NCBI GenBank assembly: GCA_018674305.1
Contig: JABHAL010000002.1
Location: 4,496 to 68,495, forward strand
Source of the DNA: Candidatus Falkowbacteria bacterium
Lineage (GTDB): Bacteria > Patescibacteriota > Patescibacteriia > UBA11705 > JABHMO01
Direction: 5' to 3'
DNA: 64,000 bases
Positions 36,077-58,189 of this stretch are shown one piece after another. The notes under the pieces are model-generated. The model had not been told where the DNA came from. It saw nothing but the letters and a program-made list of their open reading frames with translations, and ran no database searches. Position numbers and translations under genes: made by a program. Each line of letters begins with the position of its first letter. Position 1 is the first letter of the stretch.

Positions 36077-37660
36077 CTAAATTAACGACCGCCCTGACAT
36101 TTCATCAGGAATATCAATATTCATCATTTTTAAAATCGTTGGTGCAACATCAGACAAAAGACCAATCGGCTGAACTAAACTTAAATCATTGCCTACCAAC
36201 TGAACATCCTCGATTGTTTTTCCTTCAAATTGTTTGCCAATCACTAGACACGGCACAGGATTAGTACTATGCTCCTTGTCTTTTTCACCTGTTTGTAAGT
36301 TCACTAACTCTTCAGCATTACCGTGGTCTGCAACTATCATTGCCTGCCCGCCTTTTGATAAAATTAAATTCACAACATCGCCCAACAATTTATCAGTATA
36401 CTCAATTGATTGAACTGTTGGCTTAATTTCACCAGTGTGACTAACCATGTCAGGATTGGCATAATTAACCACAATAAAATCATGTTTCTCACTCATAATC
36501 TCTTTCATCAAATCATCAGTAACTTTCTTGGCTGACATTTCCGGCTTTTCTGAATATGTTGCCACCTTTGGAGAAGGAATTACAATTCTGTCTTCGCCTT
36601 CGTATGGATCCTCCGTTCCACCACTAAAGAAAAAAGTAACATGGGCATACTTTTCAGTTTCCGCAATATGCAACTGTTTGTACCCTTTTTGACTTAAAAT
36701 TTTTGGTAGTGACATCTTGATTTCTTCTTTTGGAAAAATAACTTCTACTGGTAGGCCCTCCTCATATTCTGTCATTGTAGCAAAAAACAAATTTGCAATT
36801 TTTTCACTTCTCTGAAACTTATCAAAATCATCCATAACAAAAGCTTTAGTCAACTGCCTAGCACGATCAGCTCGATAATTGAAATATATCACCGCATCGT
36901 TTTTTTCAACTACAGAAGTTGGCCTTCCATCTTTACCAATTACAACTGGCTCAAACTCTTCATCATAAACTTTATGCTTATAAGAACCCTGAACTGCTTT
37001 TACTGGATTTTTGTAATACTCTTCACTTTTTCCTTCGACCATTGCTCGATATGTTTTTTCTATCCTTTCCCAACGATTATCACGATCCATAGCAAACATA
37101 CGTCCATGCAGAGAAGCCACTACGCCAACACCAATTTCCTTGAATTTTTCCTCAAGTTCTTGAATGAATCCTTCACCACTATTATATGGTGAATCACGGC
37201 CATCTAAAAATGCATGTACATACACTTCTTTAACTTTATTTTTCTTGGCTAATTCCAAAAGACCATAACAATGACTGTTCATACCATGAACCTTACCTTC
37301 ACTCATCAACCCCACAAGATGCAATTTTGAATTATGTTTTTGTACATGAGCAATTGCCTTCTTGAGAGTTTCATTTTCAAAGATTGTCTCATCCTCAATT
37401 GCCTTGCTAATCCTAGGTAAGTTTTGATAAAAAATCTTCCCTACACCTAAATTCAAATGACCAACTTCCGAATTCCCCATTTCACCCCAGGATAACCCCA
37501 CAGCCTCACCTGAAGCTAACAAAGTCATAGCAGGATAATTTGCTACTAATTTATCAAAATTAGGTGTTTTGGCCAAAGTCACACCATTACCTTCTGACGC
37601 TGGAGCAATTCCCCAACCATCAAGAATTATAAGTACAACTGGTTTAGGTATTTTTTGCAT
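36077..37660 (-). CDS. gpmI: 2,3-bisphosphoglycerate-independent phosphoglycerate mutase (iPGM), copy 1
   Basis: PVVLIILDGWGIA and GNSEVGHLNLGVGKI (catalytic Ser), full-length alkaline-phosphatase-like fold. Confidence 0.8.
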   Translation of the reverse strand: MQKIPKPVVLIILDGWGIAPASEGNGVTLAKTPNFDKLVANYPAMTLLASGEAVGLSWGEMGNSEVGHLNLGVGKIFYQNLPRISKAIEDETIFENETLKKAIAHVQKHNSKLHLVGLMSEGKVHGMNSHCYGLLELAKKNKVKEVYVHAFLDGRDSPYNSGEGFIQELEEKFKEIGVGVVASLHGRMFAMDRDNRWERIEKTYRAMVEGKSEEYYKNPVKAVQGSYKHKVYDEEFEPVVIGKDGRPTSVVEKNDAVIYFNYRADRARQLTKAFVMDDFDKFQRSEKIANLFFATMTEYEEGLPVEVIFPKEEIKMSLPKILSQKGYKQLHIAETEKYAHVTFFFSGGTEDPYEGEDRIVIPSPKVATYSEKPEMSAKKVTDDLMKEIMSEKHDFIVVNYANPDMVSHTGEIKPTVQSIEYTDKLLGDVVNLILSKGGQAMIVADHGNAEELVNLQTGEKDKEHSTNPVPCLVIGKQFEGKTIEDVQLVGNDLSLVQPIGLLSDVAPTILKMMNIDIPDEMSGRSLI

Positions 37661-37667
37661 ATTTTGT

Positions 37668-39212
37668 TTATTTTATTAGAGATTTTTTTATTTTTTTTGA
37701 AATATTTTCTTGATTATATAAATCATATACTGTTGGCGCAATATCACCTAGAATACCTTTTCTTAATTTAACCCCCTTGTGTTCATCAGAAACTAGAACA
37801 AACGGGACTGGATTAGTAGTATGCCCAGTCCAAATCTCATTTGTTTTTAAATCAATCATTTTTTCAGCATTACCATGGTCAGCAGTTATAATTATAACAC
37901 CTTTATTTTTTAATACTAGCTTAGTCAATTCACCAATACATTTATCTACATGGTTGACTGCCTCCACGACTGCCTTCAAATTACCCGTATGACCTATCAT
38001 GTCTGGATTAGCAAAATTAATTGCAAAGAAATCGAATTTTTTTCTTTCAATAAATTGTTTTACTTTGTTAGTTATTTTGTAAACACTCATTTCAGGTTTA
38101 AGTGCATAACTTTTCACTCGAGGTGAATTAATTTTAAGCCTTGCTTCACCGTTTACCGGATCAGCTGAACCTCCATTCATAAAGTAAGTAACATGGGCAT
38201 ATTTTTCTGTTTCTGCAATATAAAGCTGTTTTTTGTCATCCAAAATTATTGGCAAAGTTGCATTTAATTCAGCAGCAGGATAGGCAGTTAAAATATGATC
38301 TAAATCTGGGCCAAAATCAGTTAAAGCACAAAACTCCAACCCTTTGTATACTTTAGATCGACGAAAAGCACCTTTATTCATTCTATTAAAATCATGTTGA
38401 ACAAAACATTTGCTCAACTGCCTGGAGCGATCAGAACGCGCATTGAAAAATATCACTCCATCTTTTTCTTTTATTCTAGTCTTTTCTGTCTGCTTTTTGT
38501 CTTTACCAATAACACACGGCTCGATAAACTCATCCGTTTGCTTTTGATTATAAGCATGTACGATCGCATCACGATAATCATTAAAAAATGCTCCTTTTCC
38601 AATAGTCATGCAGTCGTAAGCTTTTTGAGTTCGTTTCCAGTTTTTACCTCGATCCATAGCATAAAACCTACCAATCAAACTAACAATTACAGCTTTACCG
38701 TAAACATTTTTCAATACTTCATCAACAATTTTCAAAGCATGAAACTGCGGCGCATCACGCCCATCCGTAAACAAGTGTAAATATATTTTCCGAAGCCCTT
38801 TACTGTAAGCTAAATCAACCAAAGAATACAAATGATCCAAAGATGAATGTGGACTTTCTCCATCTGAAACCATTCCCATCAAGTGCAAGGCTGATTTATT
38901 TTTTTTGACTACTTCAATTGTTTGATTTAAAGCTGAATTTTTCTTAAATCGTCCATTCAAAATGTCTTCGGAAATCTCAACTGCGTCGTCTTTGACAACT
39001 CTTCCTGCGCCTATATTAATATGCCCAGCCTCAGAATTCCCAACATAATGTTTTGGTAAACCAACATTAAGACCATGAGCTTTTAATTCTGTATGCGGAT
39101 ACTTTTTCCAAAGCAAATCAAAGTTTGGCTTTTTCGCCAACTCAATTGCATTGCCTTTGCTTTTTGGTGCAATTCCCCATCCATCTAGAATTAATAATAC
39201 TACAGGTCCCAT
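37668..39212 (-). CDS. iPGM paralog, copy 2 (tandem duplicate)
   Basis: GPVVLLILDGWGIA and GNSEAGHINIGAGRV. Same architecture, diverged sequence. Confidence 0.75.
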   Translation of the reverse strand: MGPVVLLILDGWGIAPKSKGNAIELAKKPNFDLLWKKYPHTELKAHGLNVGLPKHYVGNSEAGHINIGAGRVVKDDAVEISEDILNGRFKKNSALNQTIEVVKKNKSALHLMGMVSDGESPHSSLDHLYSLVDLAYSKGLRKIYLHLFTDGRDAPQFHALKIVDEVLKNVYGKAVIVSLIGRFYAMDRGKNWKRTQKAYDCMTIGKGAFFNDYRDAIVHAYNQKQTDEFIEPCVIGKDKKQTEKTRIKEKDGVIFFNARSDRSRQLSKCFVQHDFNRMNKGAFRRSKVYKGLEFCALTDFGPDLDHILTAYPAAELNATLPIILDDKKQLYIAETEKYAHVTYFMNGGSADPVNGEARLKINSPRVKSYALKPEMSVYKITNKVKQFIERKKFDFFAINFANPDMIGHTGNLKAVVEAVNHVDKCIGELTKLVLKNKGVIIITADHGNAEKMIDLKTNEIWTGHTTNPVPFVLVSDEHKGVKLRKGILGDIAPTVYDLYNQENISKKIKKSLIK

Positions 39213-41919: not shown

Positions 41920-42174
41920 TTAATCCCCTGCAATCGAAATCAATTCCCAGGAGCTACCGTCAACTTTGTTAATTTTAACTTTTGCGCCCTCGGCAACTGT
42001 ATTTCTACTCAACATCTGTAAATTGAACTCTAAATTTTCAGAACTAATATCTGCACCATGTTCGATCACTGAACCCAAATCAATCAAAATCTTCTTAACC
42101 TGCTTGAGGTTATTTTTTTTCGCTTGTTCCAGCACAAGCTTGTGGATTTTGTCCGCTACATGAAGATCATGCAT
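41920..42174 (-). CDS. HypA/HybF-like hydrogenase nickel-insertion protein, N-terminal domain only (no CxxC zinc ribbon)
   Basis: MHDLHVADKIHKLVLEQAKKNNLKQVKKILIDLGSV parallels the HypA MHE-motif N-terminus. Only 84 aa and lacks the C-terminal Cys4 zinc site. Confidence 0.4.
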   Translation of the reverse strand: MHDLHVADKIHKLVLEQAKKNNLKQVKKILIDLGSVIEHGADISSENLEFNLQMLSRNTVAEGAKVKINKVDGSSWELISIAGD

Positions 42175-42307: not shown

Positions 42308-43078
42308 ATGGTCTGGACAAGTGCAGATGAAAGCCGAGCACGCAGAGAGGGGTTCAGTGTTGAGCAAGAAAGAAATCGCCAACGGTATATAGATCACATT
42401 AAGGCGAATAATGCTCTACAAGAGAAAGAAAAAGAAAGAAAAAAAAGAGAAAAAGAAAAAGATGATGATAAGATGAAAGTCCAGTTAGTATTGATGTTCT
42501 TTGTTGCTCCAGTTGTGATTATTTTTATGATTGTCCTTTTAATCATTCAAATATCTGGCAACGGTCACATCCTCACCGGTGATTCCAAAATTGCTTCTGA
42601 GTATAAGCAAAAGAGAAAGGAAGTAGTAGAACTGCAAGAAAAATTGTCCGAAAAAATAACTAAACTGGGAGTTGCTGAAACAGAATTCAAAGCAACAATC
42701 GCTAGCAATGTTGGGACAATTCAGAGTAACATTAGACGTGGGCAAATCAGGAGCTTCAATGATGCAGTAAGGAATCAAGAAAGCAACACCAAACTCAAGA
42801 TAATTGCCAAAGCACAAGCTTATCTCGAAATCGTGACTGCTGAGAAAAGAGCAGTTGCCAGAGCGGGTGTTGAGCTTCAAGGAATACGGGCTAATCTTGA
42901 CCTTGATCTAACAATGCTAAAAGCGACAGATCAAGAAGAAATGGACGATTTGATTAAAAAGCTTGATAATGTCATCACAAAAATCAAGCCTGTAGCAGAG
43001 GAATACGTAATCAATGATTACAACAGAGGTTCCTCAGATCTCAAAAGCACTTGGAATAAATATTTTATTCAGAAGTAG
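42308..43078 (+). CDS. membrane-anchored protein, member 1 of a family sharing a ~100-aa conserved module
   Basis: Basic N-terminus, one TM, then the module KAQAYLEIV...LDLDLTMLKATDQEEMDDLIKKLDNVITKIKPVAEEYVIND. Confidence 0.6.
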   Translation: MVWTSADESRARREGFSVEQERNRQRYIDHIKANNALQEKEKERKKREKEKDDDKMKVQLVLMFFVAPVVIIFMIVLLIIQISGNGHILTGDSKIASEYKQKRKEVVELQEKLSEKITKLGVAETEFKATIASNVGTIQSNIRRGQIRSFNDAVRNQESNTKLKIIAKAQAYLEIVTAEKRAVARAGVELQGIRANLDLDLTMLKATDQEEMDDLIKKLDNVITKIKPVAEEYVINDYNRGSSDLKSTWNKYFIQK

Positions 43079-43192
43079 ACGTGGACTCGACAATCTTATT
43101 GTCGAGTTTTTAAATTCAGAAAACATTGACAAATAACTAGAAATAAGGGAAAATAACCTAATTGAACTTTAACAACAAAACAAGGGGGAAAC

Positions 43193-43741
43193 ATGCGACA
43201 TCATACAATATGTTTTTTTACATTAATATTTCTTCTTTGTTTACCCACCTGCAACAAAAGAGATGCAAAAAAGGAAACTAAGGAAAAATATGAAACTGTA
43301 ATTTCCTTAATGGAAAAACTACATGAGAAGCATGTCAACATTGACAACACAATAAAAAAGTTCAAAGACAAAAAAACTGAATTCAAAAAAGCCATCAAAG
43401 GGATTAAATCCAAACGTGGAATTTCGTCTTATGCTGAGGCAGAAAACAACAAGCCTTTAATGATCCATCTAACAGCCTACCAAAAAGTTGAAGCATATTT
43501 AAAAATACTTAAGGAAGAAGATAAAAAAACTGAACAAGCCGCCATTGAATTATATGGTATTCAGATGCAACTTGAGCTTGACATTGAAATGCTTGAAAGC
43601 ATAGAAAATGCCGACCTGGAAGAAACACTTAAGCAATTGAATTTAGTGATTGACAAAATCCAGCCTACAGCAGATAACCTGGTATTAAATGATGAAAACA
43701 CACCCAAAACGCCACTAGAAAAACTTTTCAATGAACTTTGA
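43193..43741 (+). CDS. lipoprotein, member 2 of the conserved-module family
   Basis: Signal peptide with Cys (LCLPTC). Module QKVEAYLKIL...LELDIEMLESIENADLEETLKQLNLVIDKIQPTADNLVLND...PLEKLFNEL. Confidence 0.6.
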   Translation: MRHHTICFFTLIFLLCLPTCNKRDAKKETKEKYETVISLMEKLHEKHVNIDNTIKKFKDKKTEFKKAIKGIKSKRGISSYAEAENNKPLMIHLTAYQKVEAYLKILKEEDKKTEQAAIELYGIQMQLELDIEMLESIENADLEETLKQLNLVIDKIQPTADNLVLNDENTPKTPLEKLFNEL

Positions 43742-43753
43742 AAACAACTCATC

Positions 43754-43784
43754 AAAACCAGCACCACACCGTGCTGGTTTTTTC
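43754..43784 (+). terminator. rho-independent terminator (copy 1 of a duplicated terminator)
   Basis: ACCAGCAC-cacacc-GTGCTGGT followed by TTTTT. Identical to the hairpin at 45684..45713. Confidence 0.6.
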
Positions 43785-43856
43785 ATTGACAAATCATAAA
43801 AAATAAGGGAAAATAACCTAATTGGACTTTGACAACAACCCATTGAGGAGGCCTTA

Positions 43857-45677
43857 ATGAAACATTACTTGAATACAATAGTTCTCCTACTTGTTATTAT
43901 TTTCTTCTCGGTGACCTGCAGTAAAAATGAACAGCCAAATGAAGTCATAGATTCAAAACCCAACAGCTCCGCTAAACTACTTGCTAAATTCAAGCACACA
44001 CAAGCAGTTTATGGAATTGACTGGCATCCTGATGGAAAACTAATTGCATCTAGACACTACCGAGACACAGCTTTCATCTGGAACACTGAAAACAAAACTC
44101 GACAATTTGTTCATGATGGCAAGCAACTCACCGACATAAAATTCAGTACTGATGGTAGTTACTTAGCCTTTATTGATCACGAAATTTCTAAATATAGCTG
44201 TCAGCGCGAATGTCGTTACTCTGACTATGAACGTTGCAATGACTGCAAGAAAAAACACGAGAACGATTACGATGTGAGATTCTTGTCAAAAGTCTACGAC
44301 CTTAGACTAAAACATTACTTAAAAGAAATAGCAAGTGGCTCCGCTCAAACAATCTCAGCTGACCTCAAGGTATATGTCACCCACGCTCTCGATTCAAAAA
44401 TAATCTACTTTGATGGGACATACTTCTTTTCCTCCAGCAGTCGTGCAGGGATGGAGACTTTCATAGAGTCTAGTTCGAAAAATCACTTTTTTCATGAAGT
44501 AAAAAGTTATTCTGTGCGAAAAACAGAAGAAACAAAAGAAGGAAATACACACCTCGGCGCAATGACAATTTTCTTGTCCACAAAAGGAAATCTGTTAAAG
44601 ATTTTCAATCAAGCCGACGACGGGAAGGGGCCTCATTGTTCCATAAAACAATGCAGTCATGATTACAAAATTATGGCTGCAGAGTGGCAACCCGGAACTA
44701 AGAAAATAACAGTTTTAAGTTCTGACAACATTCTAAGTCTTTGGGATAGTTGTTTCTCAGGTAAACAGCTTTACACCTACAATCACTCTGGCAGTGAAGC
44801 AGTGACCCTAAAATGGAATGTATCAGGTGATGTTCTGGCAGTTCAATTCATGAACAATATTTTACTGTTCAATGAAAAATTGGAACTCCAAAAAACACTG
44901 GATATTATGAGTAATGATATTGCCTGGAACAAAGATGGCAATATTTTAGCAGTCATTACCAAAAATAAAATTTATTTTTGGGACAACCTGAATTCGAATC
45001 TAACTTTTCATGAAAGTTCAGAAAAAATTAATGATTTTGCCTGGAATCCGGAATTCAATCAATTCGCCCTGGCGACTGAAGTGAATGACGACGAAGGCTT
45101 TGTAGAAATTTGGGAGATTGACTCTTCTTATAGAATCATCGTCGCCAACAAAAAGAGAACTTCCAATAATACAGAACATCAGCTGACAATCAAAGAAGAA
45201 ACAGTAAAAAAATTAACCACTGTTCGCTCTCTCATAAAACAATTACAAAAAAAGGAAGAATCACTATCAGATGATCTTCGATCCTTCCAAACTGACGTAG
45301 ACAGATACAAATCAACAATCACTGACTTGAAACTACACAACAATATTGCAAGCTATAAAGAAGCGGTCAAGAATGACCGGATAAACAATTATCTTGTAGC
45401 GATGCAAAAAGCTTTGGCCTACATGGACTTTATTAAACATGAGCTTTTAACTACTAGCAAAAGTTTAGTGGAGTCTGAAGGCACTCAATTACAACTGGAG
45501 CTTGATGCAAAAATTCTGGACAGCTTAGACGAGAACAAATTGGACCAGATGATTGCTCAATTGGACTTGGTTATCACAAAAATTCAACCAAACGCCCAGG
45601 AACTCGTGATTAAAGAAAATGACACACAAAAAATACCATTAGAAAAACTATACAATGAGTATTTTGAAGATGAGTAG
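43857..45677 (+). CDS. lipoprotein with WD40-like beta-propeller region and the C-terminal conserved module (member 3)
   Basis: Lipobox FSVTC. Repeated W/D-containing beta-strand blocks. C-terminus QKALAYMDF...LELDAKILDSLDENKLDQMIAQLDLVITKIQPNAQELVIKENDTQKIPLEKLYNEY. Confidence 0.6.
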   Translation: MKHYLNTIVLLLVIIFFSVTCSKNEQPNEVIDSKPNSSAKLLAKFKHTQAVYGIDWHPDGKLIASRHYRDTAFIWNTENKTRQFVHDGKQLTDIKFSTDGSYLAFIDHEISKYSCQRECRYSDYERCNDCKKKHENDYDVRFLSKVYDLRLKHYLKEIASGSAQTISADLKVYVTHALDSKIIYFDGTYFFSSSSRAGMETFIESSSKNHFFHEVKSYSVRKTEETKEGNTHLGAMTIFLSTKGNLLKIFNQADDGKGPHCSIKQCSHDYKIMAAEWQPGTKKITVLSSDNILSLWDSCFSGKQLYTYNHSGSEAVTLKWNVSGDVLAVQFMNNILLFNEKLELQKTLDIMSNDIAWNKDGNILAVITKNKIYFWDNLNSNLTFHESSEKINDFAWNPEFNQFALATEVNDDEGFVEIWEIDSSYRIIVANKKRTSNNTEHQLTIKEETVKKLTTVRSLIKQLQKKEESLSDDLRSFQTDVDRYKSTITDLKLHNNIASYKEAVKNDRINNYLVAMQKALAYMDFIKHELLTTSKSLVESEGTQLQLELDAKILDSLDENKLDQMIAQLDLVITKIQPNAQELVIKENDTQKIPLEKLYNEYFEDE

Positions 45678-45683
45678 ATAACA

Positions 45684-45713
45684 CAAACCAGCACCACACC
45701 GTGCTGGTTTTAT
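45684..45713 (+). terminator. rho-independent terminator (copy 2 of the duplicated terminator)
   Basis: AAACCAGCACCACACCGTGCTGGTTTTATT, same stem-loop as at 43754. Confidence 0.6.
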
Positions 45714-45788
45714 TATTGACAATAACGTAAAATATTAGTAAGATACAATGATTATGAACTTTTACAACAAAATGACAAGGAGGCCCAA

Positions 45789-48008
45789 ATGTCCAGATGG
45801 CTAAAGACAATTATTACTGTTATTATTATCATTTTTGCTTGTTCTTGTAACAAAGACAAAAAGGCCAAGAAAAATAAGTCAACTCGTCCTGAAGTCGCTG
45901 AAAAAAACTCCCCTAACTCCAATACTGAACCAGCTCCCCTCTCACAAGAAAAAGAAGCTCCACCAAAGTCAAAAAAAGAAATTTCCGAAGAAAAGCTTGA
46001 ACATGTAAAGCATCTTCGCAGAAAACTCGAAAGAAAAGAAAGAACCTTGGCTGGCGCACTTATTACATACAAAGACAAAATTTCTATTTTTGTTCAAGAA
46101 ATCAAACAAGAACGTAACCGTAGAAACTTGGTTGAATACAATCAGGCAATTTCAAGTAATTCAATCAAGCATAATCTCGAGGCAATTCAAAAAGCTGAGG
46201 CCTACTGGGGAATTACTAATAGGGAAAAAGTAAAAACAAAACTGGCAATTGTCGACGCAGAAGGAACTGAAAAACTACTTGATCTAGACATCACCATGTT
46301 TAGCACCATGCCTGAAGATGAAATCGACAAACTACTTGATGAACTTGACCTTGTAATTAATAGAATCCAACCGACAGCCAGAGATCTTGTTATCACAGAC
46401 AAGGAAACTGTGCTTACTCCTCTTGATGAGATTTACGAAAAACATATTCGTAAAGAGGAACGTGAGCGAGAAAAAAAGGAAATTGAGCGTAAAAAAAAAG
46501 CTGAAGCTGACCGGTTAGAACGAGAGCGTCAGGTAAAACTAGCAAAAGAAAAAGCGTTAGCAGATACCCAGGCTCGTGCAGCCCTTAATGCTGAAGCTCG
46601 TCGCCAAGCGTTAATTGCTAGGAAACAAGCCGATGAAGAGGCTGCTAGTCAAGAGAGGACTGCCAGACTACAAGCAATCGCCGAGGCTACACGCCAAGCA
46701 AAAATTGCCAGACAGCAAATAACAGCCGAAGAAAACCGCATAGCTGATGAAGTAGTAAAACAAATTGAGTATAAGAAACGCGAAGCTGAAAATCGTGCCC
46801 GAGAAAAAGCTGCTGAACTTGCTAGTAAGCAAAAAACAGCAGCAGCGATTGCTAACATCAAAATTATCAAACCCACTATCTGGACTTCTATTGCATATTA
46901 CAGACCTGGGGGTGATGGTGCAGGTTACATCCGTTGGTCAAATGATAGCAAAGCAGTGGCTATCACCACCTCATCAAAAATGACTATTAAGGGTGTTCCT
47001 CAAAGCACAACTTATGAGCTTGAATCTAATTACGATAACAGCGACTATATAACCGACATGATCTGGTCTCAAAGCAAAACCAAAATTGCAATCTATTATT
47101 CACATTCTTGTGCACTGGAAAGAGGAAACGCCAAGATTGCAATTTACTCGTTAACAAATGATAAAGAGCTCTGGAGGGTGGAAGTCGAATGCTCCCAAGC
47201 CGCTAGTTTCCTTGGTTGGTTTGGTGATTATATTGTCCTTAAAGCATCCGCTGGGTACAGTAGAAATTTTCACATTTACATTATCAATACGAAAACCAAG
47301 AAAACTCAATCATTCACAGCTGACGCGATAACCCCAGTAAACAACTCCTCTGTCTTTGCTGCAAGCTCAAAAAGAATAATCCAAGTCAGTCTTTCTGACA
47401 GAACAATTCTAAAAGAGTTTAAGTTTTGTCGAGATGATGACGAGTCTCTTTATTATTCTTTTTGCCCAGGAGAGATTGACATTCATAAACTCGCCTACAC
47501 GAGCGGGCATCTAATTTCATCAGAGTCGCCACAAAACGGAGAAAGTAGCTTCTCCATTTGGGACACAACTTCTGGAAATAAACTCCACTGGTTTAAAGGT
47601 GACGAACCAAGAGATCTTTGGTGGCTAAAAGACGGCAAAACAGCAGTTATTGCTTTGTCGTCTGGCACAATTTTTACAGTAAATGCGAAAAGTGGATCAA
47701 TTTACGAGAAAAAGCTCGTAGATGGTGCGATTGGCTTTTATGGCTATAATGTAAACACTTGGTCCACTAAAAAACCTCATCTTGTTATCAATAAAAATTC
47801 TCCTCAGCACGAAACAGCTCTTAATGAAAAAGCAGGTTCGTACAATACTCTCTTTGTCATGGATATTAGGGACCAACAAACAAAGGCCGTCTTGGTTATG
47901 GAGTCAGATATCTCAGATTCTGTCAGACTTTCATGGAGCCCAAACGGCAAGTACCTCGCAATTGGAGACAAGGGACTCCTTCATGTTTTCAATGTAAGCA
48001 ATATTTGA
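45789..48008 (+). CDS. large lipoprotein (member 4): low-complexity linker, conserved module, Arg/Ala/Glu coiled coil, C-terminal beta-propeller-like domain
   Basis: Lipobox FACSC. Module QKAEAYWGI...LDLDITMFSTMPEDEIDKLLDELDLVINRIQPTARDLVITDKETVLTPLDEIYEKH. A roughly 130-aa ERERE/KKAEA/ARRQA coiled coil, then a roughly 390-aa W/Y-rich beta domain. Confidence 0.6.
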   Translation: MSRWLKTIITVIIIIFACSCNKDKKAKKNKSTRPEVAEKNSPNSNTEPAPLSQEKEAPPKSKKEISEEKLEHVKHLRRKLERKERTLAGALITYKDKISIFVQEIKQERNRRNLVEYNQAISSNSIKHNLEAIQKAEAYWGITNREKVKTKLAIVDAEGTEKLLDLDITMFSTMPEDEIDKLLDELDLVINRIQPTARDLVITDKETVLTPLDEIYEKHIRKEEREREKKEIERKKKAEADRLERERQVKLAKEKALADTQARAALNAEARRQALIARKQADEEAASQERTARLQAIAEATRQAKIARQQITAEENRIADEVVKQIEYKKREAENRAREKAAELASKQKTAAAIANIKIIKPTIWTSIAYYRPGGDGAGYIRWSNDSKAVAITTSSKMTIKGVPQSTTYELESNYDNSDYITDMIWSQSKTKIAIYYSHSCALERGNAKIAIYSLTNDKELWRVEVECSQAASFLGWFGDYIVLKASAGYSRNFHIYIINTKTKKTQSFTADAITPVNNSSVFAASSKRIIQVSLSDRTILKEFKFCRDDDESLYYSFCPGEIDIHKLAYTSGHLISSESPQNGESSFSIWDTTSGNKLHWFKGDEPRDLWWLKDGKTAVIALSSGTIFTVNAKSGSIYEKKLVDGAIGFYGYNVNTWSTKKPHLVINKNSPQHETALNEKAGSYNTLFVMDIRDQQTKAVLVMESDISDSVRLSWSPNGKYLAIGDKGLLHVFNVSNI

Positions 48009-48012
48009 CAAT

Positions 48013-48041
48013 AAACCCACCTTCGACAAGGTGGGTTTTTA
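48013..48041 (+). terminator. rho-independent terminator
   Basis: ACCCACCTT-cgac-AAGGTGGGT followed by TTTT. Confidence 0.55.
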
Positions 48042-48105
48042 CTTGACAAAACCATTAAAATGTATAAAACTAGTATGAAAGGTTGATCTTTAACAGAAGG
48101 AGGTC

Positions 48106-48957
48106 GTGATGACGAAAAGATTAAAATTCTCCAGACTTATCCTAGGTATTATCTGTATCGCACTTGCAATTCTGATTTTCATGGCCTTAATTCGTTTTGG
48201 CACTGTATTTGCTTTTCTCATGATCTATCCGTGGATTTCCGACGCCTTGCAATCCTCTGCTGGAATGAATCACTGGCTAGCAAGTATAATCGCCTTTGTT
48301 CCGGCAGTCGTCGGGGTAATCGGCATTGGGATGCTTTTCTCCTGGAATAGGAAAAGACGAACTATCGGCATGGTCATGGCGGGTATCGCCTATCTCACCA
48401 CGTGCGCCTTTATGTACTCCATTGAGGCAGATCGCTCATTTGACCCCATTACAGGAAAAGCAAATAAATGCTATGCTGCAGGCTTAAACGGTTATGAAGA
48501 AATTTCTTGTGAATGGAAATTCCATCCCGAGACTGGCAATCCCGTCATCACAGACCTTGGTGAAATTAAAAAAATCATCACCTCAATGAATGTTTCAGAA
48601 AGTGAACCAAGGATCTCCAATAAGGTCCGTCCAAACAAAAACCTACGTTTCTTCTCTGTTGATGGAACACCTATGTATTGGTACTATGAATTTCCAGATG
48701 GCGTAATTGACATGTTTGACTCCCCTGGTAGACATCCACACTTCAACACAGTACTGCAGCCCATCACGCCAGAAATTGTAAAAATCGTTCTTTATCCTCA
48801 AGATAATTGGGATATTGAAAGAGTTAATTTGCCAGACTCAAAGCCCATCAGCCAGGGTGACCCAAAAGCGCTTTCATCTGCCAACAGCGGAAACGATAGC
48901 GCTATGGAAGAACTTCGCGATCTCTATATCGAGAGAAAAAAGCAACTAAAACAGTAA
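48106..48957 (+). CDS. membrane protein (3 N-terminal TM) with an extracytoplasmic domain, function unknown
   Basis: Own TTGACA promoter and GAAGGAGG SD. Hydrophobic N-terminal third then a soluble domain. Does not carry the conserved family module. Confidence 0.5.
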   Translation: MMTKRLKFSRLILGIICIALAILIFMALIRFGTVFAFLMIYPWISDALQSSAGMNHWLASIIAFVPAVVGVIGIGMLFSWNRKRRTIGMVMAGIAYLTTCAFMYSIEADRSFDPITGKANKCYAAGLNGYEEISCEWKFHPETGNPVITDLGEIKKIITSMNVSESEPRISNKVRPNKNLRFFSVDGTPMYWYYEFPDGVIDMFDSPGRHPHFNTVLQPITPEIVKIVLYPQDNWDIERVNLPDSKPISQGDPKALSSANSGNDSAMEELRDLYIERKKQLKQ

Positions 48958-49017: not shown

Positions 49018-50295
49018 TTAATGCGTCGCGCAACTGATACATGGATCGTATGCCCGAATCAAAGTTTTTATTAACGAATCTCTCTTCTTATCTGACAACT
49101 TTTTAATTTGCGGCAAATATTTCTCAAGATCTTTTTCCAAATTAGCCAAAAACATAGCGGTTGGTGTAATTACATTGCAATGAATAATTTCGCCCACCTT
49201 GTTAAATTCATATTCATGATACAAGATCCCACGAGGTGCCTCCATCACAGCATAACCCTTACCAGCCTTAACTATGAAATCAACTTTTAGGTTTTTCATA
49301 AACTTCGGTTTTGCTCGCAGTTTCTCATATTGGACAAAAAGTTTATTTATCTCCTCAATTGAATTAATAATCTCAGTTGTCTGGGCTACTATATTATAGA
49401 ATGAATTATAACACGGCAAGTTCACTTTTAGCTTATTCCAAGAAGCTTTTGCCTCTTTGTTCAGCTGAGCATAATTATTGTTCACTCGAGCAAGAGCGCC
49501 AACCATGAACGTTTCTTTCATATGATGTGAGCGTTTAACTTTTTCATATGGTAAAACAGTTTCTTGCACGTCACTTAGGAAATCCTCGACTTTATCATAA
49601 CTATCATTATCTGAGAAATAAATGCTCCCATCATAAACTGCATATTCATTTTTATTTTTCAAAGAAACATAATTTGTTGGTCTTTGAAACTTTGGTAATT
49701 TATATTTCAAAACCACATCATGAATTTGCCTAGCTTGTAATAGAACTTGCTTTTGTTTTTGCATTAATTCTTTAAGTTCAACAAAGTCTGGCTCAACATT
49801 AAATCCACCAACTACACTATTAATCGGATGAACGGTTCGACCTCCAACAACTCGCGCTAACTGCACTCCCCAATCACGAACTTGAAGAGCAATTTTTGAC
49901 TCTTTGGTATACTTATTTATCAAAGCAAAATTATTACTAACACCTACGATATCAGGAAACGAGAAAAAGAAAGCATGTACTGCATGACTATGAATTATTT
50001 GCGCATTTTCTAGGATCTTACGAAGCAATATTATTTCCGGAGTTACCCTGACACTAAAAGCTGCCTCAACGGCCTTAATTGAAGTTAAATTATGCACAAT
50101 CGGGCATACACCACAAATCCGCGAAGTTACAATCGGAGCTTCGTAATATTTTCTATTTAATAATATTCCTTCGATCAAACGAGCTCCCTCTTCTGTGTCC
50201 ACGCGAGCTTGAGCAAAATCATTACCAAGCAAAGCCCCAACGAAACTCAGGTGGCCTTCAGTTTTGGCGATGTGATTTATTTTAATAGTTTTCAT
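49018..50295 (-). CDS. [NiFe]-hydrogenase large (alpha) subunit, group 3b/sulfhydrogenase-like
   Basis: N-terminal RICGVCPIVH (RxCGxCxxxH) and C-terminal DPCISCATH (DPCxxCxxH) Ni-Fe ligand motifs. Length about 425 aa. Confidence 0.85.
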   Translation of the reverse strand: MKTIKINHIAKTEGHLSFVGALLGNDFAQARVDTEEGARLIEGILLNRKYYEAPIVTSRICGVCPIVHNLTSIKAVEAAFSVRVTPEIILLRKILENAQIIHSHAVHAFFFSFPDIVGVSNNFALINKYTKESKIALQVRDWGVQLARVVGGRTVHPINSVVGGFNVEPDFVELKELMQKQKQVLLQARQIHDVVLKYKLPKFQRPTNYVSLKNKNEYAVYDGSIYFSDNDSYDKVEDFLSDVQETVLPYEKVKRSHHMKETFMVGALARVNNNYAQLNKEAKASWNKLKVNLPCYNSFYNIVAQTTEIINSIEEINKLFVQYEKLRAKPKFMKNLKVDFIVKAGKGYAVMEAPRGILYHEYEFNKVGEIIHCNVITPTAMFLANLEKDLEKYLPQIKKLSDKKRDSLIKTLIRAYDPCISCATH

Positions 50296-51314
50296 AAAGG
50301 ATATTTTATTTTACCTGTATTAACAATTAACATTTTTTTATCTTTCGGTAATTTGTTTTTCAATTGAAGCATCAACGCCAACCCAGCAATACCAGAGGCC
50401 TCACAATCTATTTGTTGGCACGCAGCAACTCTCAAGGCCTCATCAATAAATTGTTCTTTAACGTTATAAACATCCGATTTCGAACCACAATAACCAGCAT
50501 AGCGATAAAGTTTAATCCACTGCTCATCATAATTAACAAAGGGCAAATGAGGGGAAAACAATTTATTAGCCTTAGTCTTCGGATTGTTAGTGGTCGACCC
50601 AAAAAAATTACAAGCTCTCAATTTATTCACTCTACCCCTAAACCTTGGGTCATGATGACTTGTCACAACCTCCCGTTTATTAATATTTAAAATATTTTCA
50701 AATAAATGTCCCGACCCAAACGGAACAAAACAATAGTCAGGAGAACTGTTAATAATTTCATAACTTAACCAGTCATAATATCTAGTTGTCGGATCAAGTG
50801 CTTCACTTGACGTAATATCGAAACCATTTTTATTTTTTGTTAATCGCAAAATTTCATTCCAAGAAAACGCTTTTTCACTTAAATCAGTTTTAAATATCTT
50901 GCAACCAGTTTTATACAAAAATTTCAGAATTTCATCATCAATGTGATTATCAACTAGTACTCGCAAATTAGGTAATTTATACTTTTTCAATTGCACCTGA
51001 ATGGCAATCGCTGCTGAACCTGATGAGATTATTGAAACATCGGGTAATTTACTTATTTGTCCCCCTTTTTTTGACAACAAGAAATCACGATAAGTCACTA
51101 CCATTTCCCAAGCCATTCTATCTTTATGCGTCCCCGTTGGATTATGACTTTCATCCTTCAACCAAACATTATTAAATCCAGGTACTTTTATTTTGTAAGT
51201 TGGAGTAGCGGGAAACTTCGGATCATCAACTGGAAATTCGGGCTTTTCTGGATTATTTTCCGATGCAATTACAATTGACTTTAATATTTTTTCTTCTTGC
51301 TTGGTTAATGCCAT
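50292..51314 (-). CDS. PLP-dependent fold-type-II enzyme (threonine-synthase/cysteine-synthase superfamily) embedded in the hydrogenase operon
   Basis: LKDESHNPTGTHKDRMA matches the K-[DE]-ES-x-NPTGS-[FH]-KDR lysine motif. Gly loop PFGSGH. Overlaps the large-subunit start by 4 nt (ATGA). Confidence 0.7.
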   Translation of the reverse strand: MALTKQEEKILKSIVIASENNPEKPEFPVDDPKFPATPTYKIKVPGFNNVWLKDESHNPTGTHKDRMAWEMVVTYRDFLLSKKGGQISKLPDVSIISSGSAAIAIQVQLKKYKLPNLRVLVDNHIDDEILKFLYKTGCKIFKTDLSEKAFSWNEILRLTKNKNGFDITSSEALDPTTRYYDWLSYEIINSSPDYCFVPFGSGHLFENILNINKREVVTSHHDPRFRGRVNKLRACNFFGSTTNNPKTKANKLFSPHLPFVNYDEQWIKLYRYAGYCGSKSDVYNVKEQFIDEALRVAACQQIDCEASGIAGLALMLQLKNKLPKDKKMLIVNTGKIKYPL

Positions 51315-51327
51315 AAATAATTTCTAA

Positions 51328-52095
51328 TTATTTTCTAAGTTTATTTCTTTTCTTCCAAACTAACTCTTTAACGCCAAAAACTTCAAAAAATTTAGAGATT
51401 TCTTTATCTGAATATTTTTCTTTTAATTTTTTGATTAAATTATCTACTTCCGCATCTTCAACTAAACCACGACAACCCCAACAGCCTTGCATTGATTTTG
51501 TACAAATAGCATCACATCCGCCTTGCGTAATTGGCCCCATACAGACCTCACCATATTGCAAAACACACTTTTGTCCCCTCACTTGGCACTCATAACAAAC
51601 TGGATTTTGAGTAATAGCTGGTTCTTTGCCAATTAATAGCTGGTATACAAAATCATAAAATTCTTCTCCTGTTATTGGACATCCTGGGATAGAAAAATCC
51701 ACCTTAACGTATGCACTTAGTGGCTTGACATCCAAATTCTCAATTCCCTTTTCACCTTGATAAACATAATCATGAATTTTGTTTTTATCTTGATACATTT
51801 TTAAATGATAAATTCCACCCATATGTGCGCAACTACCAATTGAGATGACATACTTTGAATTTTTCCTAACCAACTTTAACTGTTTGATATCTCGCGTGGT
51901 CAAAGGGCTACCTTCAACAAAAACAATATCGTACTTTTCATCTGGTGAGTGTTCGTCCTCTTCAAATAAACGAAAATTTACTATTTCAATTTTTTCATTC
52001 AATTCAAGTAACTTATTTGGTAAATCTAAAATCGCAACACAGCAACCTTCACAGCCGGTCAATGGGAATATTCCTACTTTTATTTTGTTATTCAT
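51328..52095 (-). CDS. [NiFe]-hydrogenase small (delta) subunit
   Basis: GCEGCCVAIL proximal-cluster CxxC motif at the N-terminus and further Cys clusters, including CPITGEEF. Length about 255 aa. Confidence 0.75.
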   Translation of the reverse strand: MNNKIKVGIFPLTGCEGCCVAILDLPNKLLELNEKIEIVNFRLFEEDEHSPDEKYDIVFVEGSPLTTRDIKQLKLVRKNSKYVISIGSCAHMGGIYHLKMYQDKNKIHDYVYQGEKGIENLDVKPLSAYVKVDFSIPGCPITGEEFYDFVYQLLIGKEPAITQNPVCYECQVRGQKCVLQYGEVCMGPITQGGCDAICTKSMQGCWGCRGLVEDAEVDNLIKKLKEKYSDKEISKFFEVFGVKELVWKKRNKLRK

Positions 52096-52128
52096 AGTAA
52101 TAAGTAAAATGTAAAAGGTAAAAAGTAA

Positions 52129-52497
52129 TCACAACTGTTTTTGAATTGATTTTATCAAACCATTTATAAGTCTTTTCACCTCATCTGCATGATTTACTAA
52201 CTCTTCACAAAAACTGCTTTCTAATATATTAAGACCTCTTGAAACAAGTAAAAAACTTTGCACTTCTGACAACGAACCCCTCGCTTGATAATAAAATCGA
52301 ATCTTATCTTTGAAATAATAGCGAGAAAATCCTTCAGCAATGTTGGCGGTGATCGATATTGAAGCTCTTCGGATTTGACTTATAAGTCCAAATTTTTCTT
52401 CAGCAGGAAAATCCGATGTCACCTCATAAACTTTTAAAGTAAATTTATATGCACGTTGCCAAGCCTTTAAATCGTAATAATTATTTATTTTATTCAT
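52129..52497 (-). CDS. four-helix-bundle protein (TIGR02436, '23S rRNA intervening sequence protein' family)
   Basis: YDLKAWQRAYKFTLKVYEVTSDFPAEEKFGLISQIRRASISITANIAEGFSRY is the family signature. Confidence 0.8.
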   Translation of the reverse strand: MNKINNYYDLKAWQRAYKFTLKVYEVTSDFPAEEKFGLISQIRRASISITANIAEGFSRYYFKDKIRFYYQARGSLSEVQSFLLVSRGLNILESSFCEELVNHADEVKRLINGLIKSIQKQL

Positions 52498-52530
52498 AAC
52501 AGTCCCTTATTACCCTTTACACTTTACTGG

Positions 52531-53004
52531 TTACTTTTTACGTTGTTCCAAAATTGCCTTTAATTCTTCAGGTCGATTGGTTACAAAAAAGTATGGTCGT
52601 CTTTGGCCAGCAACTGTAATAACTAAACCTTTACCTCCCCGAGGCACATAACCAACTGTTTTGTCACGACCAAATCGAATACCGTAACCTAAATAATTTT
52701 GAAACTTATACTCACTAAATTCTATTTTTTTTATTTTACTTATTAAAATACGCTTGCGGAATTTCATAAACCCGAAGATTAAATGCGTATCACTTACCTT
52801 GATGTTTAACTCTCGAAAAGACGCCAAAATGAAAACATTCAACAATAAAATAATTGCTAATACAGTTTTTGAAGCGTTGTCCAAAGCAATTGGTTTATCT
52901 GTGTACTGCGACATTAGAATTATAAGAAAAATCAAACAGGTGATTACCAGAATCGCAGTAATTAAATGATAAGTTTGAACCTTGTCTTTGAAAATTGTTG
53001 GCAT
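52531..53004 (-). CDS. membrane protein with bacterial PH (bPH/YdbS-like) domain
   Basis: Two N-terminal TM helices followed by a roughly 90-aa beta-rich domain of bPH_2 type. Confidence 0.45.
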   Translation of the reverse strand: MPTIFKDKVQTYHLITAILVITCLIFLIILMSQYTDKPIALDNASKTVLAIILLLNVFILASFRELNIKVSDTHLIFGFMKFRKRILISKIKKIEFSEYKFQNYLGYGIRFGRDKTVGYVPRGGKGLVITVAGQRRPYFFVTNRPEELKAILEQRKK

Positions 53005-53024
53005 ATTTTTTATCTATTCACTCA

Positions 53025-53822
53025 TTAAAAATAATTTACACTTCTTAAAAATTCATAATTAAACACAGGACCATCTTTGCAAATATACTTGGACCCAATA
53101 GCACAATGCTGACACACTCCTACTCCGCAATGCATTCTTTTTTCCAATGAAAAATACATATTAGCTGGCTCAACCTTTTTGGCCAAAAGTTCTTTCACAA
53201 CGAACTTGTACATTATCGCTGGCCCACAGACAAACACTAACGAATTCTTCAATAACTTCTTTTTCTTTATTAAGTCCGTAACAAATCCTTTTTGTTTAGC
53301 AAACCCGGGAATAGTTTCATTTTCCAAAATCAATCCAAAATCATGTTTGTTTTTTATTTTTGAATACTCTCTTTTGAATACTAGTGATTCCTGTGTCGAA
53401 CAACCAACCAACACTTGAAGCTTAATATCTTTACGATTGCGATTTTCTTCGAACACGCTTCGCAATGGAATAAAACCACAACCACCACCGATCAGAATTA
53501 AATTTTTAGTAACCTCAGGAAATCCGTTACCAAAAGGTCCACGCACAAAAGCTTTATCGCCAACCTTCAGGTTATTTAATTTAGCAGTTAATTCTCCAAC
53601 ACTACGAATTGTTAAACAAAAATGTTTATCTGACAACTTTGGGCTCGAAGAAATTGAAATAGGGCATTCACCAAAACCTGGTAAGCCAATTTGCATAAAC
53701 TGCCCTGCCAAAAATTTTAATTCATTTTGCTTGTCCAAACTAAAATAAAAAGTATTGGTAATTGAATTTTCTTTAACTACTTTAATAACCTTTGCTGGTT
53801 GTAGGGCATATTGATTTTTCAT
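53025..53822 (-). CDS. sulfhydrogenase gamma-like subunit (FAD/NAD(P)-binding oxidoreductase with C-terminal 2Fe-2S site)
   Basis: Ferredoxin-reductase-like fold motifs and C-terminal CGVGVCQHCAIG...C. Confidence 0.75.
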   Translation of the reverse strand: MKNQYALQPAKVIKVVKENSITNTFYFSLDKQNELKFLAGQFMQIGLPGFGECPISISSSPKLSDKHFCLTIRSVGELTAKLNNLKVGDKAFVRGPFGNGFPEVTKNLILIGGGCGFIPLRSVFEENRNRKDIKLQVLVGCSTQESLVFKREYSKIKNKHDFGLILENETIPGFAKQKGFVTDLIKKKKLLKNSLVFVCGPAIMYKFVVKELLAKKVEPANMYFSLEKRMHCGVGVCQHCAIGSKYICKDGPVFNYEFLRSVNYF

Positions 53823-54793
53823 ACTTTTTTCAATTCTTGCAAATTCTCAGCAATATTAATTTCAACTGGGCAAGTTTTGTAACAACGCATACAACTAACA
53901 CAACCATAGTAATCGAACTCATCAGGAATGCGTACAAATTTATGATAATACCAAAAATATAATTTCTTTTTTACTGAATCCAATTCTTTATTACCACCCG
54001 TTATTTCAGAAAACTTTGGATAAAAACAGGTTGTCCATTGTCGTGTTTTCACGACTTGATCAAATTCAACCTTATCCTTCTGGTCAAAGCAAAAACAGGT
54101 TGGACAATGGATTGAGCACTTCCCGCAACTAAGACAAATTTTAGCTAATTTATCCCATAGTGGGTGGTCAGGATTGTTCAATATTGCTAGCTTTTTTTGT
54201 TCAATCAAAGGATTGGGACCATGCTCAGGTATAAATCCAGCAAATTCAATATTTTCGTAGTCTTCAATTTTACTTTTTTCCAGAAGCTGTTGACCTTTTT
54301 CCGAGCCGGAAAACAAAATCAAATTACCACTCTTCTGTCTTTCAACAAAAACATCAAAAATAAGATGCTCTAACACATCTTCTTCATATTTTTTATTAAA
54401 CACTTTGTATTTACGTAAATCATCCTCAATGCCATTAGTTAAACCAATATAATGTAAGGATTGTCGACGCTTTTGAAAATAATAATCTTTAGCAAAAACC
54501 TGTTCAAATAAAGCCAAGGCTCGTAAATCTAAAATATTTAATCCAAGAATAAAAATAGGCTTTATTTTTTCATTAATAACTTTAGCTACGTCCTTGGAAT
54601 ATGTCGCCATATCTTGTTTAGCTGGCAAAACAATTGACTTGAATGAATTCAATGGTATGTCACCAGACCAGTCCATATCCCCCGGTTTAAAAATTTGTTT
54701 AACTAAAACCATTTCTCCATCTTTAACTGGAGAATAAACGAAACCCTTTTCTAGCAATTTTGCTACAAATTTATCAAATTCAGACTTTTTCAT
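53819..54793 (-). CDS. sulfhydrogenase beta-like subunit (Fe-S cluster protein)
   Basis: CLSCGKCSIHCPTCFC and CVSCMRCYKTCP ferredoxin-type 4Fe-4S motifs. Overlaps the gamma start by 4 nt. Confidence 0.75.
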   Translation of the reverse strand: MKKSEFDKFVAKLLEKGFVYSPVKDGEMVLVKQIFKPGDMDWSGDIPLNSFKSIVLPAKQDMATYSKDVAKVINEKIKPIFILGLNILDLRALALFEQVFAKDYYFQKRRQSLHYIGLTNGIEDDLRKYKVFNKKYEEDVLEHLIFDVFVERQKSGNLILFSGSEKGQQLLEKSKIEDYENIEFAGFIPEHGPNPLIEQKKLAILNNPDHPLWDKLAKICLSCGKCSIHCPTCFCFDQKDKVEFDQVVKTRQWTTCFYPKFSEITGGNKELDSVKKKLYFWYYHKFVRIPDEFDYYGCVSCMRCYKTCPVEINIAENLQELKKV

Positions 54794-58123: not shown

Positions 58124-58189
58124 ACGAGTTGATGTTTAATTTATAATTTCCAATTTTTCAATTTTCATTAAATTTGTAATTTTCAATTT

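Follow-up and report, generated by a model that had tools for sequence, protein, structure and literature searches.

Why does a gene for a pyridoxal phosphate (PLP)-dependent enzyme lie between the small- and large-subunit genes of a [NiFe] hydrogenase? The arrangement occurs in the window, a 64,000-nucleotide stretch of DNA from a Candidatus Falkowbacteria bacterium (assembly GCA_018674305.1, contig JABHAL010000002.1, positions 4,496 to 68,495), in which seven genes of the minus strand at 49018-54793 make up or interrupt a hydrogenase operon. An initial annotation had suggested that the PLP enzyme is a sulfide-consuming partner of a sulfhydrogenase. Comparison with related genomes points to a different answer: the PLP gene is probably a passenger in a permissive slot of the operon, and its pairing with the hydrogenase an accident of gene order.

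A hydrogenase operon with a variable slot

We compared the operon with those of relatives whose large subunits are 52-85% identical to that of the window. These relatives have a common gene order: major vault protein (MVP), LexA, DinB, hydrogenase beta and gamma subunits, a protein of 157 amino acids (aa) in the window, the small subunit, X, the large subunit, HypA, phosphoglycerate kinase (PGK), enolase and cofactor-independent phosphoglycerate mutase (iPGM). X, the slot between the small- and large-subunit genes, varies. In a census of 14 relatives, several of them on short contigs, it holds genes unrelated to the PLP gene or none at all (Table 1); only the window's own species carries the PLP gene there. 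Conservation of the insertion in related genomes, which had been proposed as a check on a functional link, is therefore lacking. The closest relative, L102, with 85% and 87% identity over partial large and small subunits on a short contig, also has a different occupant. Other passengers are packed as tightly as the PLP gene, the NUDIX gene of L083 overlapping the large-subunit gene by 14 nt. The small-large gap tolerates passengers, and in this clade genes have repeatedly entered it, left it and been replaced.

The PLP insertion itself is not a product of assembly. All seven open reading frames (ORFs) were confirmed by ORF calling and translation, with the gene order and minus-strand coordinates originally given. 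The two junctions reported around the PLP gene could both be read at the nucleotide level: its stop codon overlaps the start of the large-subunit gene in 'ttATGAaa', and the small-subunit gene is followed by TAA, 13 nt and the ATG of the PLP gene, which is indeed embedded in the operon. The beta and gamma genes overlap by 4 nt, much as the PLP and large-subunit genes do, so tight packing is a general style of this operon. Within the operon, counts of motifs resembling promoters and terminators match the expectation from shuffled sequence. Proteins identical to the window's large subunit and PLP enzyme appear in a public collection, in 52 and 63 of its indexed blocks, respectively. We read 23 contigs carrying one or the other, and all 23 have the same gene order; two of them, L081 and L082, derive from different ENA assemblies. 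Agreement of 23/23 contigs from at least two assemblies rules out the assembly error that had been named as a possible refutation, and the arrangement is real. The window species carries three lineage-specific insertions in or adjoining the hydrogenase operon. The remainder of the window is an ordinary chromosome of the Candidate Phyla Radiation (CPR), with genes for F-ATPase, MreBCD, PBP2 and lower glycolysis (Pfam).

Profile and PDB-match scores, on which the group assignment rests, support the earlier reading of the locus as an operon for a putative group-3b-type [NiFe] hydrogenase; the enzyme would be NAD(P)-linked, and its host is a member of the Patescibacteria (CPR). The four-subunit set is complete, comprising alpha, delta (Oxidored_q6), beta (AsrA-like FeS) and gamma (AsrB-like FAD/NAD plus 2Fe-2S) subunits (Pfam, NCBIfam). 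The L1 and L2 Ni-Fe ligand motifs of the large subunit are intact (PF00374, 110 bits); both, RICGVCPIVH and the terminal DPCISCATH, were read in the translation as annotated. For all four subunits the top NCBIfam matches are Pyrococcus sulfhydrogenase subunits, aligned end to end, and the large subunit scores 222 bits with HydA and 213 with ShyA, versus 125 with VhuA and 116 with FrhA. Its nearest solved counterparts belong to group 3b (T. kodakarensis 5yxy and P. furiosus sulfhydrogenase I 9e15 and 9nez, about 201-203 bits), whereas PDB large subunits of groups 3c and 3d reach 135-136 and 104 bits. By these scores the large subunit lies nearer to characterised 3b enzymes than to groups 3a, 3c, 3d, 1, 2 or 4. 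The sulfhydrogenase equivalog cut-offs are missed by all four subunits (222 versus 880, 167 versus 460, 169 versus 600 and 90 versus 690 bits); scores so far below them indicate a divergent CPR clade rather than equivalogs of the Pyrococcus enzymes. The names of the closest database homologues (Kuenenbacteria, Parcubacteria, Falkowbacteria, Patescibacteria) likewise indicate a Patescibacteria origin.

With P. furiosus sulfhydrogenases I and II (HydBGDA and ShyBCDA) and T. kodakarensis Hyh, the operon shares four subunits in the order beta, gamma, delta, alpha. It differs from them in a conserved gene with two predicted transmembrane (TM) helices between gamma and delta, in a slot for changing passengers that separates delta from alpha, in a large subunit that stops at its last histidine without a cleavable tail, and in a HypA without zinc-binding cysteines. 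By description, not by tree placement, the enzyme fits the CPR-specific 'hyd1' clade of group 3b (Jaffe et al. 2020), whose small subunit has about 250 aa and whose beta- and gamma-like subunits are co-located, though they do not always directly precede the small subunit (PMC7304191). Patescibacteria origin, small-subunit length and co-located beta and gamma genes are the shared features. The hyd1 paper describes a variable context and no conserved 157-aa gene, variable slot or inserted passengers (PMC7304191), all of which the window operon has. The hydrogenase thus belongs to a known CPR clade, and the variable slot, the two-TM gene and the cysteine-free HypA are a new architecture within the literature searched.

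Origin of the PLP gene in the slot

If the PLP enzyme served the hydrogenase, the two might be expected together elsewhere. About 1,600 homologues are detectable, the best 120 being 70-75% identical and coming from CPR bacteria and DPANN archaea. We inspected the neighbourhoods of the best 80 of 193 relative-encoding stretches in a species-representative genome set (55-74% identical; mostly Woesearchaeota, Micrarchaeota, Iainarchaeota and Nanoarchaeota, with many Patescibacteria). In none of the 80 did a NiFe large or small subunit lie within about 10 kb of the orthologue. Nor did these loci have a conserved neighbourhood, the commonest neighbours being AbrB/PhoU-like (11/80) and TrmB-like and Lrp-like regulators (9 each).

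One relative encodes both proteins. Its PLP orthologue P0044 (71% identical) and its large subunit P0125 lie on a single 236,662-bp contig, where P0044 is directly downstream of the glycyl-tRNA synthetase gene (GlyRS) and the slot is occupied by a 423-aa protein. In a neighbour-joining tree without support values, P0044 is the sister of the window protein. The window gene has a GC content of 0.339 (0.276 at third codon positions, GC3), matching the operon genes; no direct or inverted repeats flank it, and its flanks have an average potential to pair. Taken together, the sister relationship, the native composition and the plain flanks suggest that a resident PLP gene moved into the slot.

Two other origins were considered and rejected. 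Recent foreign acquisition is not supported, given the native composition and a sister that is the orthologue of a syntenic relative; a transposon-like insertion is disfavoured by flanks that lack repeats and pair no better than average.

In the passenger reading, the ancestral order of the clade would have been beta, gamma, 157-aa two-TM protein, small subunit, variable slot, large subunit, mini-HypA and then PGK, enolase and iPGM. The gap would have taken up, lost and regained passengers; at some point the lineage's resident PLP copy would have moved into it, with the syntenic relative retaining its copy after GlyRS. On the simplest reading the move would date after the split from the L102 lineage. 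Given the 13-nt spacer and the ATGA overlap, the PLP gene is probably co-transcribed and translationally coupled with the large-subunit gene, and this co-expression would result from where the gene lies and would not reflect a dedicated metabolic coupling.

Several points weigh against this reading. The structures that best match the PLP protein include cysteine synthases (O-acetylserine sulfhydrylase, OASS, and CysM), cystathionine beta-synthase (CBS) and enzymes that produce H2S. An ATGA overlap and tight packing with the gene of the catalytic subunit would be costly to disrupt and could reflect selection for co-expression in this species. The tree of the PLP family carries no support values, the slot census comprises 14 relatives, some of them on short contigs, and the 64-69 kb covered of the species' genome bear on whether a second PLP copy lies elsewhere.

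Alternatives to a passenger gene

Could the PLP gene instead be an accessory gene that moves horizontally and has a role in conflict or immunity, with the slot as a landing pad on which NUDIX, four-helix-bundle and PLP genes borrow the transcription of a well-expressed operon? The wider family offers material for this idea. It is sparse, with 374 members among 1.84 billion cluster representatives (exhaustive HMMER scan), and 72 of the 118 near-full-length representatives have N-terminal extensions of at least 90 aa, among which an iterative search distinguished 13 TIR-like ones, 24 of a 'module A' and 10 of a 'module B'. TIR and the two unannotated modules are fused to the PLP domain in Actinobacteria, Alphaproteobacteria and others. 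Pfam confirmed TIR_2 in P0244, P0251, P0253 and P0260, and dozens of clusters combining TIR_2 with PALP emerged from a search seeded with P0260. Outside CPR and DPANN, the relatives that carry a name come from Solirubrobacterales, Parvibaculum and Allosphingosinicella, whether a TIR domain was detected in them or not. The proteins combining TIR_2, a coiled coil and PALP (P0244, P0251, P0253, P0260 and P0401) are encoded by single genes in unrelated contexts (fusion loci L106-L109), a pattern typical of conflict systems that we take as a lead, not a conclusion. The gene for the non-TIR fusion P0310 (L109) belongs to an island that also encodes ArdC, ParB, HEPN and Toprim proteins. Moreover, bacterial and archaeal sequences interleave in the neighbour-joining tree (again without support values), and the four-helix-bundle genes of the window and its relatives look like cassettes bracketed by inverted repeats.

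The window gene itself fits the idea less well. PADLOC, which returned weak matches to the TIR region of the fusion proteins only, has no model matching the window protein or the PLP domain, and a known defence system was rejected on this basis; so was a phage or auxiliary-metabolic-gene origin, with no relatives on the viral contigs of IMG/VR and no PHROG match. The standalone CPR/DPANN clade shows the high conservation (55-75% identity) of a metabolic enzyme that purifying selection maintains. The gene lacks flanking repeats, is native in composition and groups with the syntenic relative's copy, which looks like an intragenomic move and not an acquisition. We consider a mobile conflict gene doubtful here. 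It also seems rather unlikely that conflict or signalling, and not amino-acid housekeeping, is the core biology of this uncharacterised family, with most of its sequence diversity in single-gene proteins of several domains (TIR or another N-terminal module, a coiled coil and the PLP domain), a standalone form that spread horizontally between CPR and DPANN and a slot that acts as a landing pad with read-through expression. The literature searched held nothing relevant on TIR-PLP architectures.

A third possibility is the one raised initially: a cysteine-synthase-like enzyme that uses the H2S of the sulfhydrogenase, its insertion and coupling being adaptive. In its favour are the position inside the operon with the overlap of the large-subunit start, the sulfur enzymes among the closest structures, weak NCBIfam matches to CysM, CysK and SbnA, and the proposal that CPR 3b enzymes are sulfhydrogenases (PMC7304191, PMC10811913). 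That the protein is a fold-type-II PLP enzyme stands: PALP (PF00291) scores 79 bits against a cut-off of 35, and the Schiff-base lysine, within the annotated motif KDESHNPTGTHKDR as read in the translation, and a Gly-rich phosphate loop are present. The hidden Markov model classification proposed as a check, however, reached no CysK, CysM, SbnA or ThrC model. Scores with the CysM, CysK and SbnA models are 17-20 bits against cut-offs of 344-413 (cysteine synthase models TIGR01136, 17.3 versus 344; TIGR01138, 19.6 versus 394; PRK11761, 17.7 versus 413), and ThrC-type models give 36 bits against 421 (NCBIfam), a shortfall of an order of magnitude. Structure comparison places the fold equidistant from all fold-II families, ThrC, deaminases and racemases being as similar as the sulfur enzymes. 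Against PDB sequences, phmmer gave marginal matches only and the family profile none.

Residue conservation was read from 119 sequences (the 118 near-full-length representatives and the window protein). Lys64 (in T-H-K-D-R) and G200 of the G200-x-G202 phosphate loop are present in 119/119, and S307 in 114/119, which leaves the residues that bind PLP intact. The carboxylate-binding asparagine loop for the substrate, T-S-G-N-T, is replaced by S-S-G-S-A in the window protein; Ser100, which stands in place of the asparagine of other fold-II enzymes, is invariant in the CPR/DPANN clade, and asparagine occupies this position in 34 of the 119 aligned family sequences. Compared with solved fold-II enzymes (ThrC, CysK/CysM/O-phosphoserine sulfhydrylase, CBS, SbnA/CmnB, cysteate synthase, Ser/Thr deaminases and racemases), to each of which the window protein is 9-21% identical, the family has an N-terminal PEFPxxxPxFPATPT segment, an invariant His63 before the lysine, and invariant YDW and PHLPF motifs. 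The protein belongs to a narrow orphan fold-II family, and we infer an active enzyme of the beta-replacement or beta-elimination type acting on a small amino-acid substrate. The enzyme itself might carry out sulfur chemistry, though no result points to this in particular.

Genomic context tells against the sulfide partner as well: the hydrogenase is near the PLP orthologue in 0/80 loci, relatives with the same hydrogenase have NUDIX hydrolases, other proteins without a family match or nothing in the slot, and the syntenic relative keeps its PLP gene after GlyRS. The initial annotation had said that an unrelated PLP family together with an insertion unique to this assembly would speak against its proposal, and this is largely what we found, since no sulfide-using family fits and the insertion is confined to this species. 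We regard the sulfide partner as improbable.

Maturation genes, accessory proteins and cassettes

As had been noted, hypB-F genes and a maturation protease are missing, the HypA-like gene being the only maturation gene in the Pfam tables, which cover most of the window. A truncated HypA and a missing protease had seemed oddities; both turn out to be norms of the clade. Large-subunit homologues end exactly at the histidine of DPCxxCxxH in 119 of 120 cases (P0121-P0240), and the lack of a C-terminal tail across the clade would account for the absent endopeptidase. In 10 relatives the gene right after that of the large subunit encodes a HypA orthologue of 83-92 aa. These orthologues and the window protein start with MHD, an MHE-type Ni-binding motif, and all 11 have 0-1 cysteines. 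Canonical HypA, a nickel metallochaperone, has about 113 aa and a zinc site. The form found here resembles it in the PF01155 match, the N-terminal MH[DE] and the location of its gene near that of the large subunit; it is shorter, and both CxxC motifs that make up the zinc site are gone. By sequence and position, the HypA-like gene is the clade's standard mini-HypA and the normal last gene of the operon, not a truncation.

It is barely credible that the slot genes (PLP, NUDIX, ~420-aa protein) are interchangeable maturation or accessory factors replacing HypB-F and the protease: the missing genes, the reduced HypA and a slot that directly precedes the gene for the catalytic subunit would suit this idea, but the occupants share neither fold nor chemistry, L093 and L097 have no gene in the slot, a large subunit without C-terminal extension needs no protease, PLP orthologues elsewhere are not hydrogenase-linked (0/80 loci), and hypB-F may lie outside the 64-kb window.

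In the window species alone, a block of five opposite-strand genes separates the large subunit from HypA; the 10 relatives have the two side by side. Four of the five genes have a GC content of 0.37-0.43 and the 182-aa gene 0.33, compared with 0.31-0.36 for the operon. The only Pfam matches in the block are WD40-type, and the 606-aa and 739-aa products are WD40 beta-propeller proteins with lipoprotein-like N-termini.

Three non-hydrogenase genes had been said to interrupt the operon. For the four-helix-bundle and PLP genes, which are lineage-specific, this stands; the 157-aa protein is instead a conserved member. Of the 10 relatives in which the stretch from gamma to the small subunit is readable, eight encode it there (26-57% identity); it was not detected in L094 and L100. 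Its gene is a fifth member of the operon, specific to this clade. Two N-terminal TM helices are indicated by hydropathy peaks around residues 8-36 and 41-68; the C-terminal domain is beta-rich and conserved, with the motif GYG[IV]RxG[RK]D...GY, in which the residues GYGxRxG...GY are invariant. The bPH-domain label given to it lacks Pfam support in the window copy (no bPH match at E<=1), and sub-threshold matches occur in some orthologues only (bPH_4 in three, bPH_8 in two, bPH_5, bPH_2; also DUF3093). The two-helix topology would agree with that of bPH membrane proteins of the YdbS/YdbT type; a single-sequence AlphaFold2 model is unreliable (pLDDT 56). As a hypothesis, the protein may be a bPH-like membrane tether of a supposedly cytosolic 3b hydrogenase.

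The four-helix-bundle protein belongs, as annotated, to TIGR02436 (117.8 bits, cut-off 24; PF05635, 121.9 bits, cut-off 33.8, 1.7e-35). Its gene is absent between the 157-aa and small-subunit genes in all relatives; L083 has such a gene after the large subunit, and L102 in the small-large slot. In the transcript, the flanks of the operon copy close a stem of about 19 bp (minimum-free-energy and centroid folds), with a duplex free energy of -34.4 kcal/mol, stronger than that of all 52 control genes of the window. Inverted repeats lie in both flanks of 4/4 four-helix-bundle genes, two in the window and one each in L083 and L102 (Table 1). The other flank duplexes have -36.0 (again beyond all 52 controls), -27.4 (4/52 as stable) and -20.8 kcal/mol (10/52). 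These genes look like discrete, stem-bracketed cassettes in mRNAs, and RNase III could cut the hydrogenase mRNA at the stem of the operon copy.

We take an ORF enclosed in a flank stem to be the architecture of rRNA intervening sequences (IVS). The operon cassette shares it, together with scores above the cut-offs of the 23S rRNA IVS protein family, but is located between two genes of a hydrogenase mRNA instead of in rRNA. Avd proteins of diversity-generating retroelements are a poorer fit, since the protein stays below cut-off (NF033474, 28 bits versus 80; bAvd, 30.6 versus 40). No reverse transcriptase was seen near the gene in the Pfam gene tables, and the literature searched held nothing relevant on such cassettes.

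Among the other slot occupants, a family of 290-423 aa with a membrane-anchored N-terminus recurs in relatives, often with a NUDIX hydrolase; it has no Pfam or PHROG match. Neither a NUDIX gene nor the ~420-aa protein was found displaced elsewhere within the window, and a NUDIX protein near a relative's PLP gene has no similarity to those of the slot. In the L095 slot no ORF exceeds 83 codons (141 when genetic codes 4 and 25 are applied), and the first 200 nt look GC-rich and structured; there was no Rfam match and no similarity to other slot genes. Further along the chromosome, the 971-aa MVP homologue (GC 0.49 versus a window mean of 0.36) keeps its position in L086 and L087, and two adjacent iPGM paralogues form a tandem pair that relatives keep downstream of PGK and enolase.

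Table 1. Coordinates and occurrence of the features described, in the window and in contigs of relatives (L numbers)
Feature	Location	Strand	Details
Hydrogenase beta subunit (diaphorase FeS), AsrA/HydB/ShyB-like	window 53819-54793	-	324 aa; Fer4_22 1.9e-24; top NCBIfam match sulfhyd_ShyB, end to end
Hydrogenase gamma subunit (FAD/NAD(P) + 2Fe-2S), AsrB-like	window 53025-53822	-	265 aa; FAD_binding_6, NAD_binding_1, DHODB_Fe-S_bind; NCBIfam PRK08345, ShyC, HydG
157-aa two-TM protein	window 52531-53004	-	between gamma and small subunit; no family match
Four-helix-bundle protein, TIGR02436 / 23S_rRNA_IVP	window 52129-52497	-	122 aa; TIGR02436 and PF05635
Inverted repeat arms around four-helix-bundle ORF	window 52115-52131 and 52528-52544	.	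repeat search; span 52115-52544
Hydrogenase small (delta) subunit	window 51328-52095	-	255 aa; Oxidored_q6 1e-22; top NCBIfam sulfhyd_ShyD and HydD, end to end
Fold-type-II PLP enzyme of an orphan family, in small-large slot	window 50292-51314	-	340 aa; PALP 79 bits (cut-off 35)
[NiFe] hydrogenase large (alpha) subunit, group 3b (predicted)	window 49018-50295	-	425 aa; NiFeSe_Hases; top NCBIfam HydA and ShyA; C-terminal His of DPCISCATH
Five opposite-strand genes, about 6.9-kb block	window 42308-48957	+	256, 182, 606, 739 and 283 aa; two WD40 beta-propeller proteins
HypA-like protein, starts MHD	window 41920-42174	-	84 aa, cysteine-free; PF01155 match
Second four-helix-bundle gene with inverted repeats	window 58145-58629		
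MVP homologue	window 59470-62385	-	971 aa; Vault_3, MVP_shoulder
Two adjacent iPGM paralogues	window 36077-39212	-	514 and 527 aa
Four-helix-bundle genes with inverted repeats, relatives	L083 9259-9753; L102 149-631		
Mini-HypA, relatives	L083 9754-10014; L086 9265-9525; L085 9265-9543; others		
157-aa protein orthologues	L083, L085, L086, L089, L091, L095, L097, L098		
Slot protein family, membrane-anchored N-terminus	L085 6726-7997; L089 8302-9564; L091 1966-3210; L094 1522-2430; L100 2956-3828		290-423 aa
Slot X: NUDIX hydrolase	L083, L086, L101		
Slot X: ~420-aa N-terminally TM-anchored protein and NUDIX	L089, L091		
Slot X: ~420-aa N-terminally TM-anchored protein alone	L085		
Slot X: shorter homologues of ~420-aa protein	L094, L100		290-302 aa
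Slot X: ORF	L098		95 aa
Slot X: EamA-like membrane protein	L099		128 aa
Slot X: four-helix-bundle gene	L102		
Slot X: no ORF	L093, L097		gaps of 101 and 202 bp
Slot X: no ORF	L095 8561-10001		1.44 kb

In small, rearrangement-prone CPR genomes, embedding in an operon, even with translational coupling, is no proof of a functional link, and the story of a sulfhydrogenase feeding a cysteine synthase should stay out of annotations. One intergenic position of this operon tolerates repeated passenger turnover. The architecture that the clade of hyd1-type operons has around it, with a two-TM protein, a mini-HypA without zinc site and a protease-free large subunit, bears on the maturation and positioning of the only hydrogenase that these minimal cells have. 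The orphan PLP family, 55-75% identical across CPR and DPANN, two radiations of ultra-small symbionts, and with TIR-fused relatives, is a concrete target for biochemistry.

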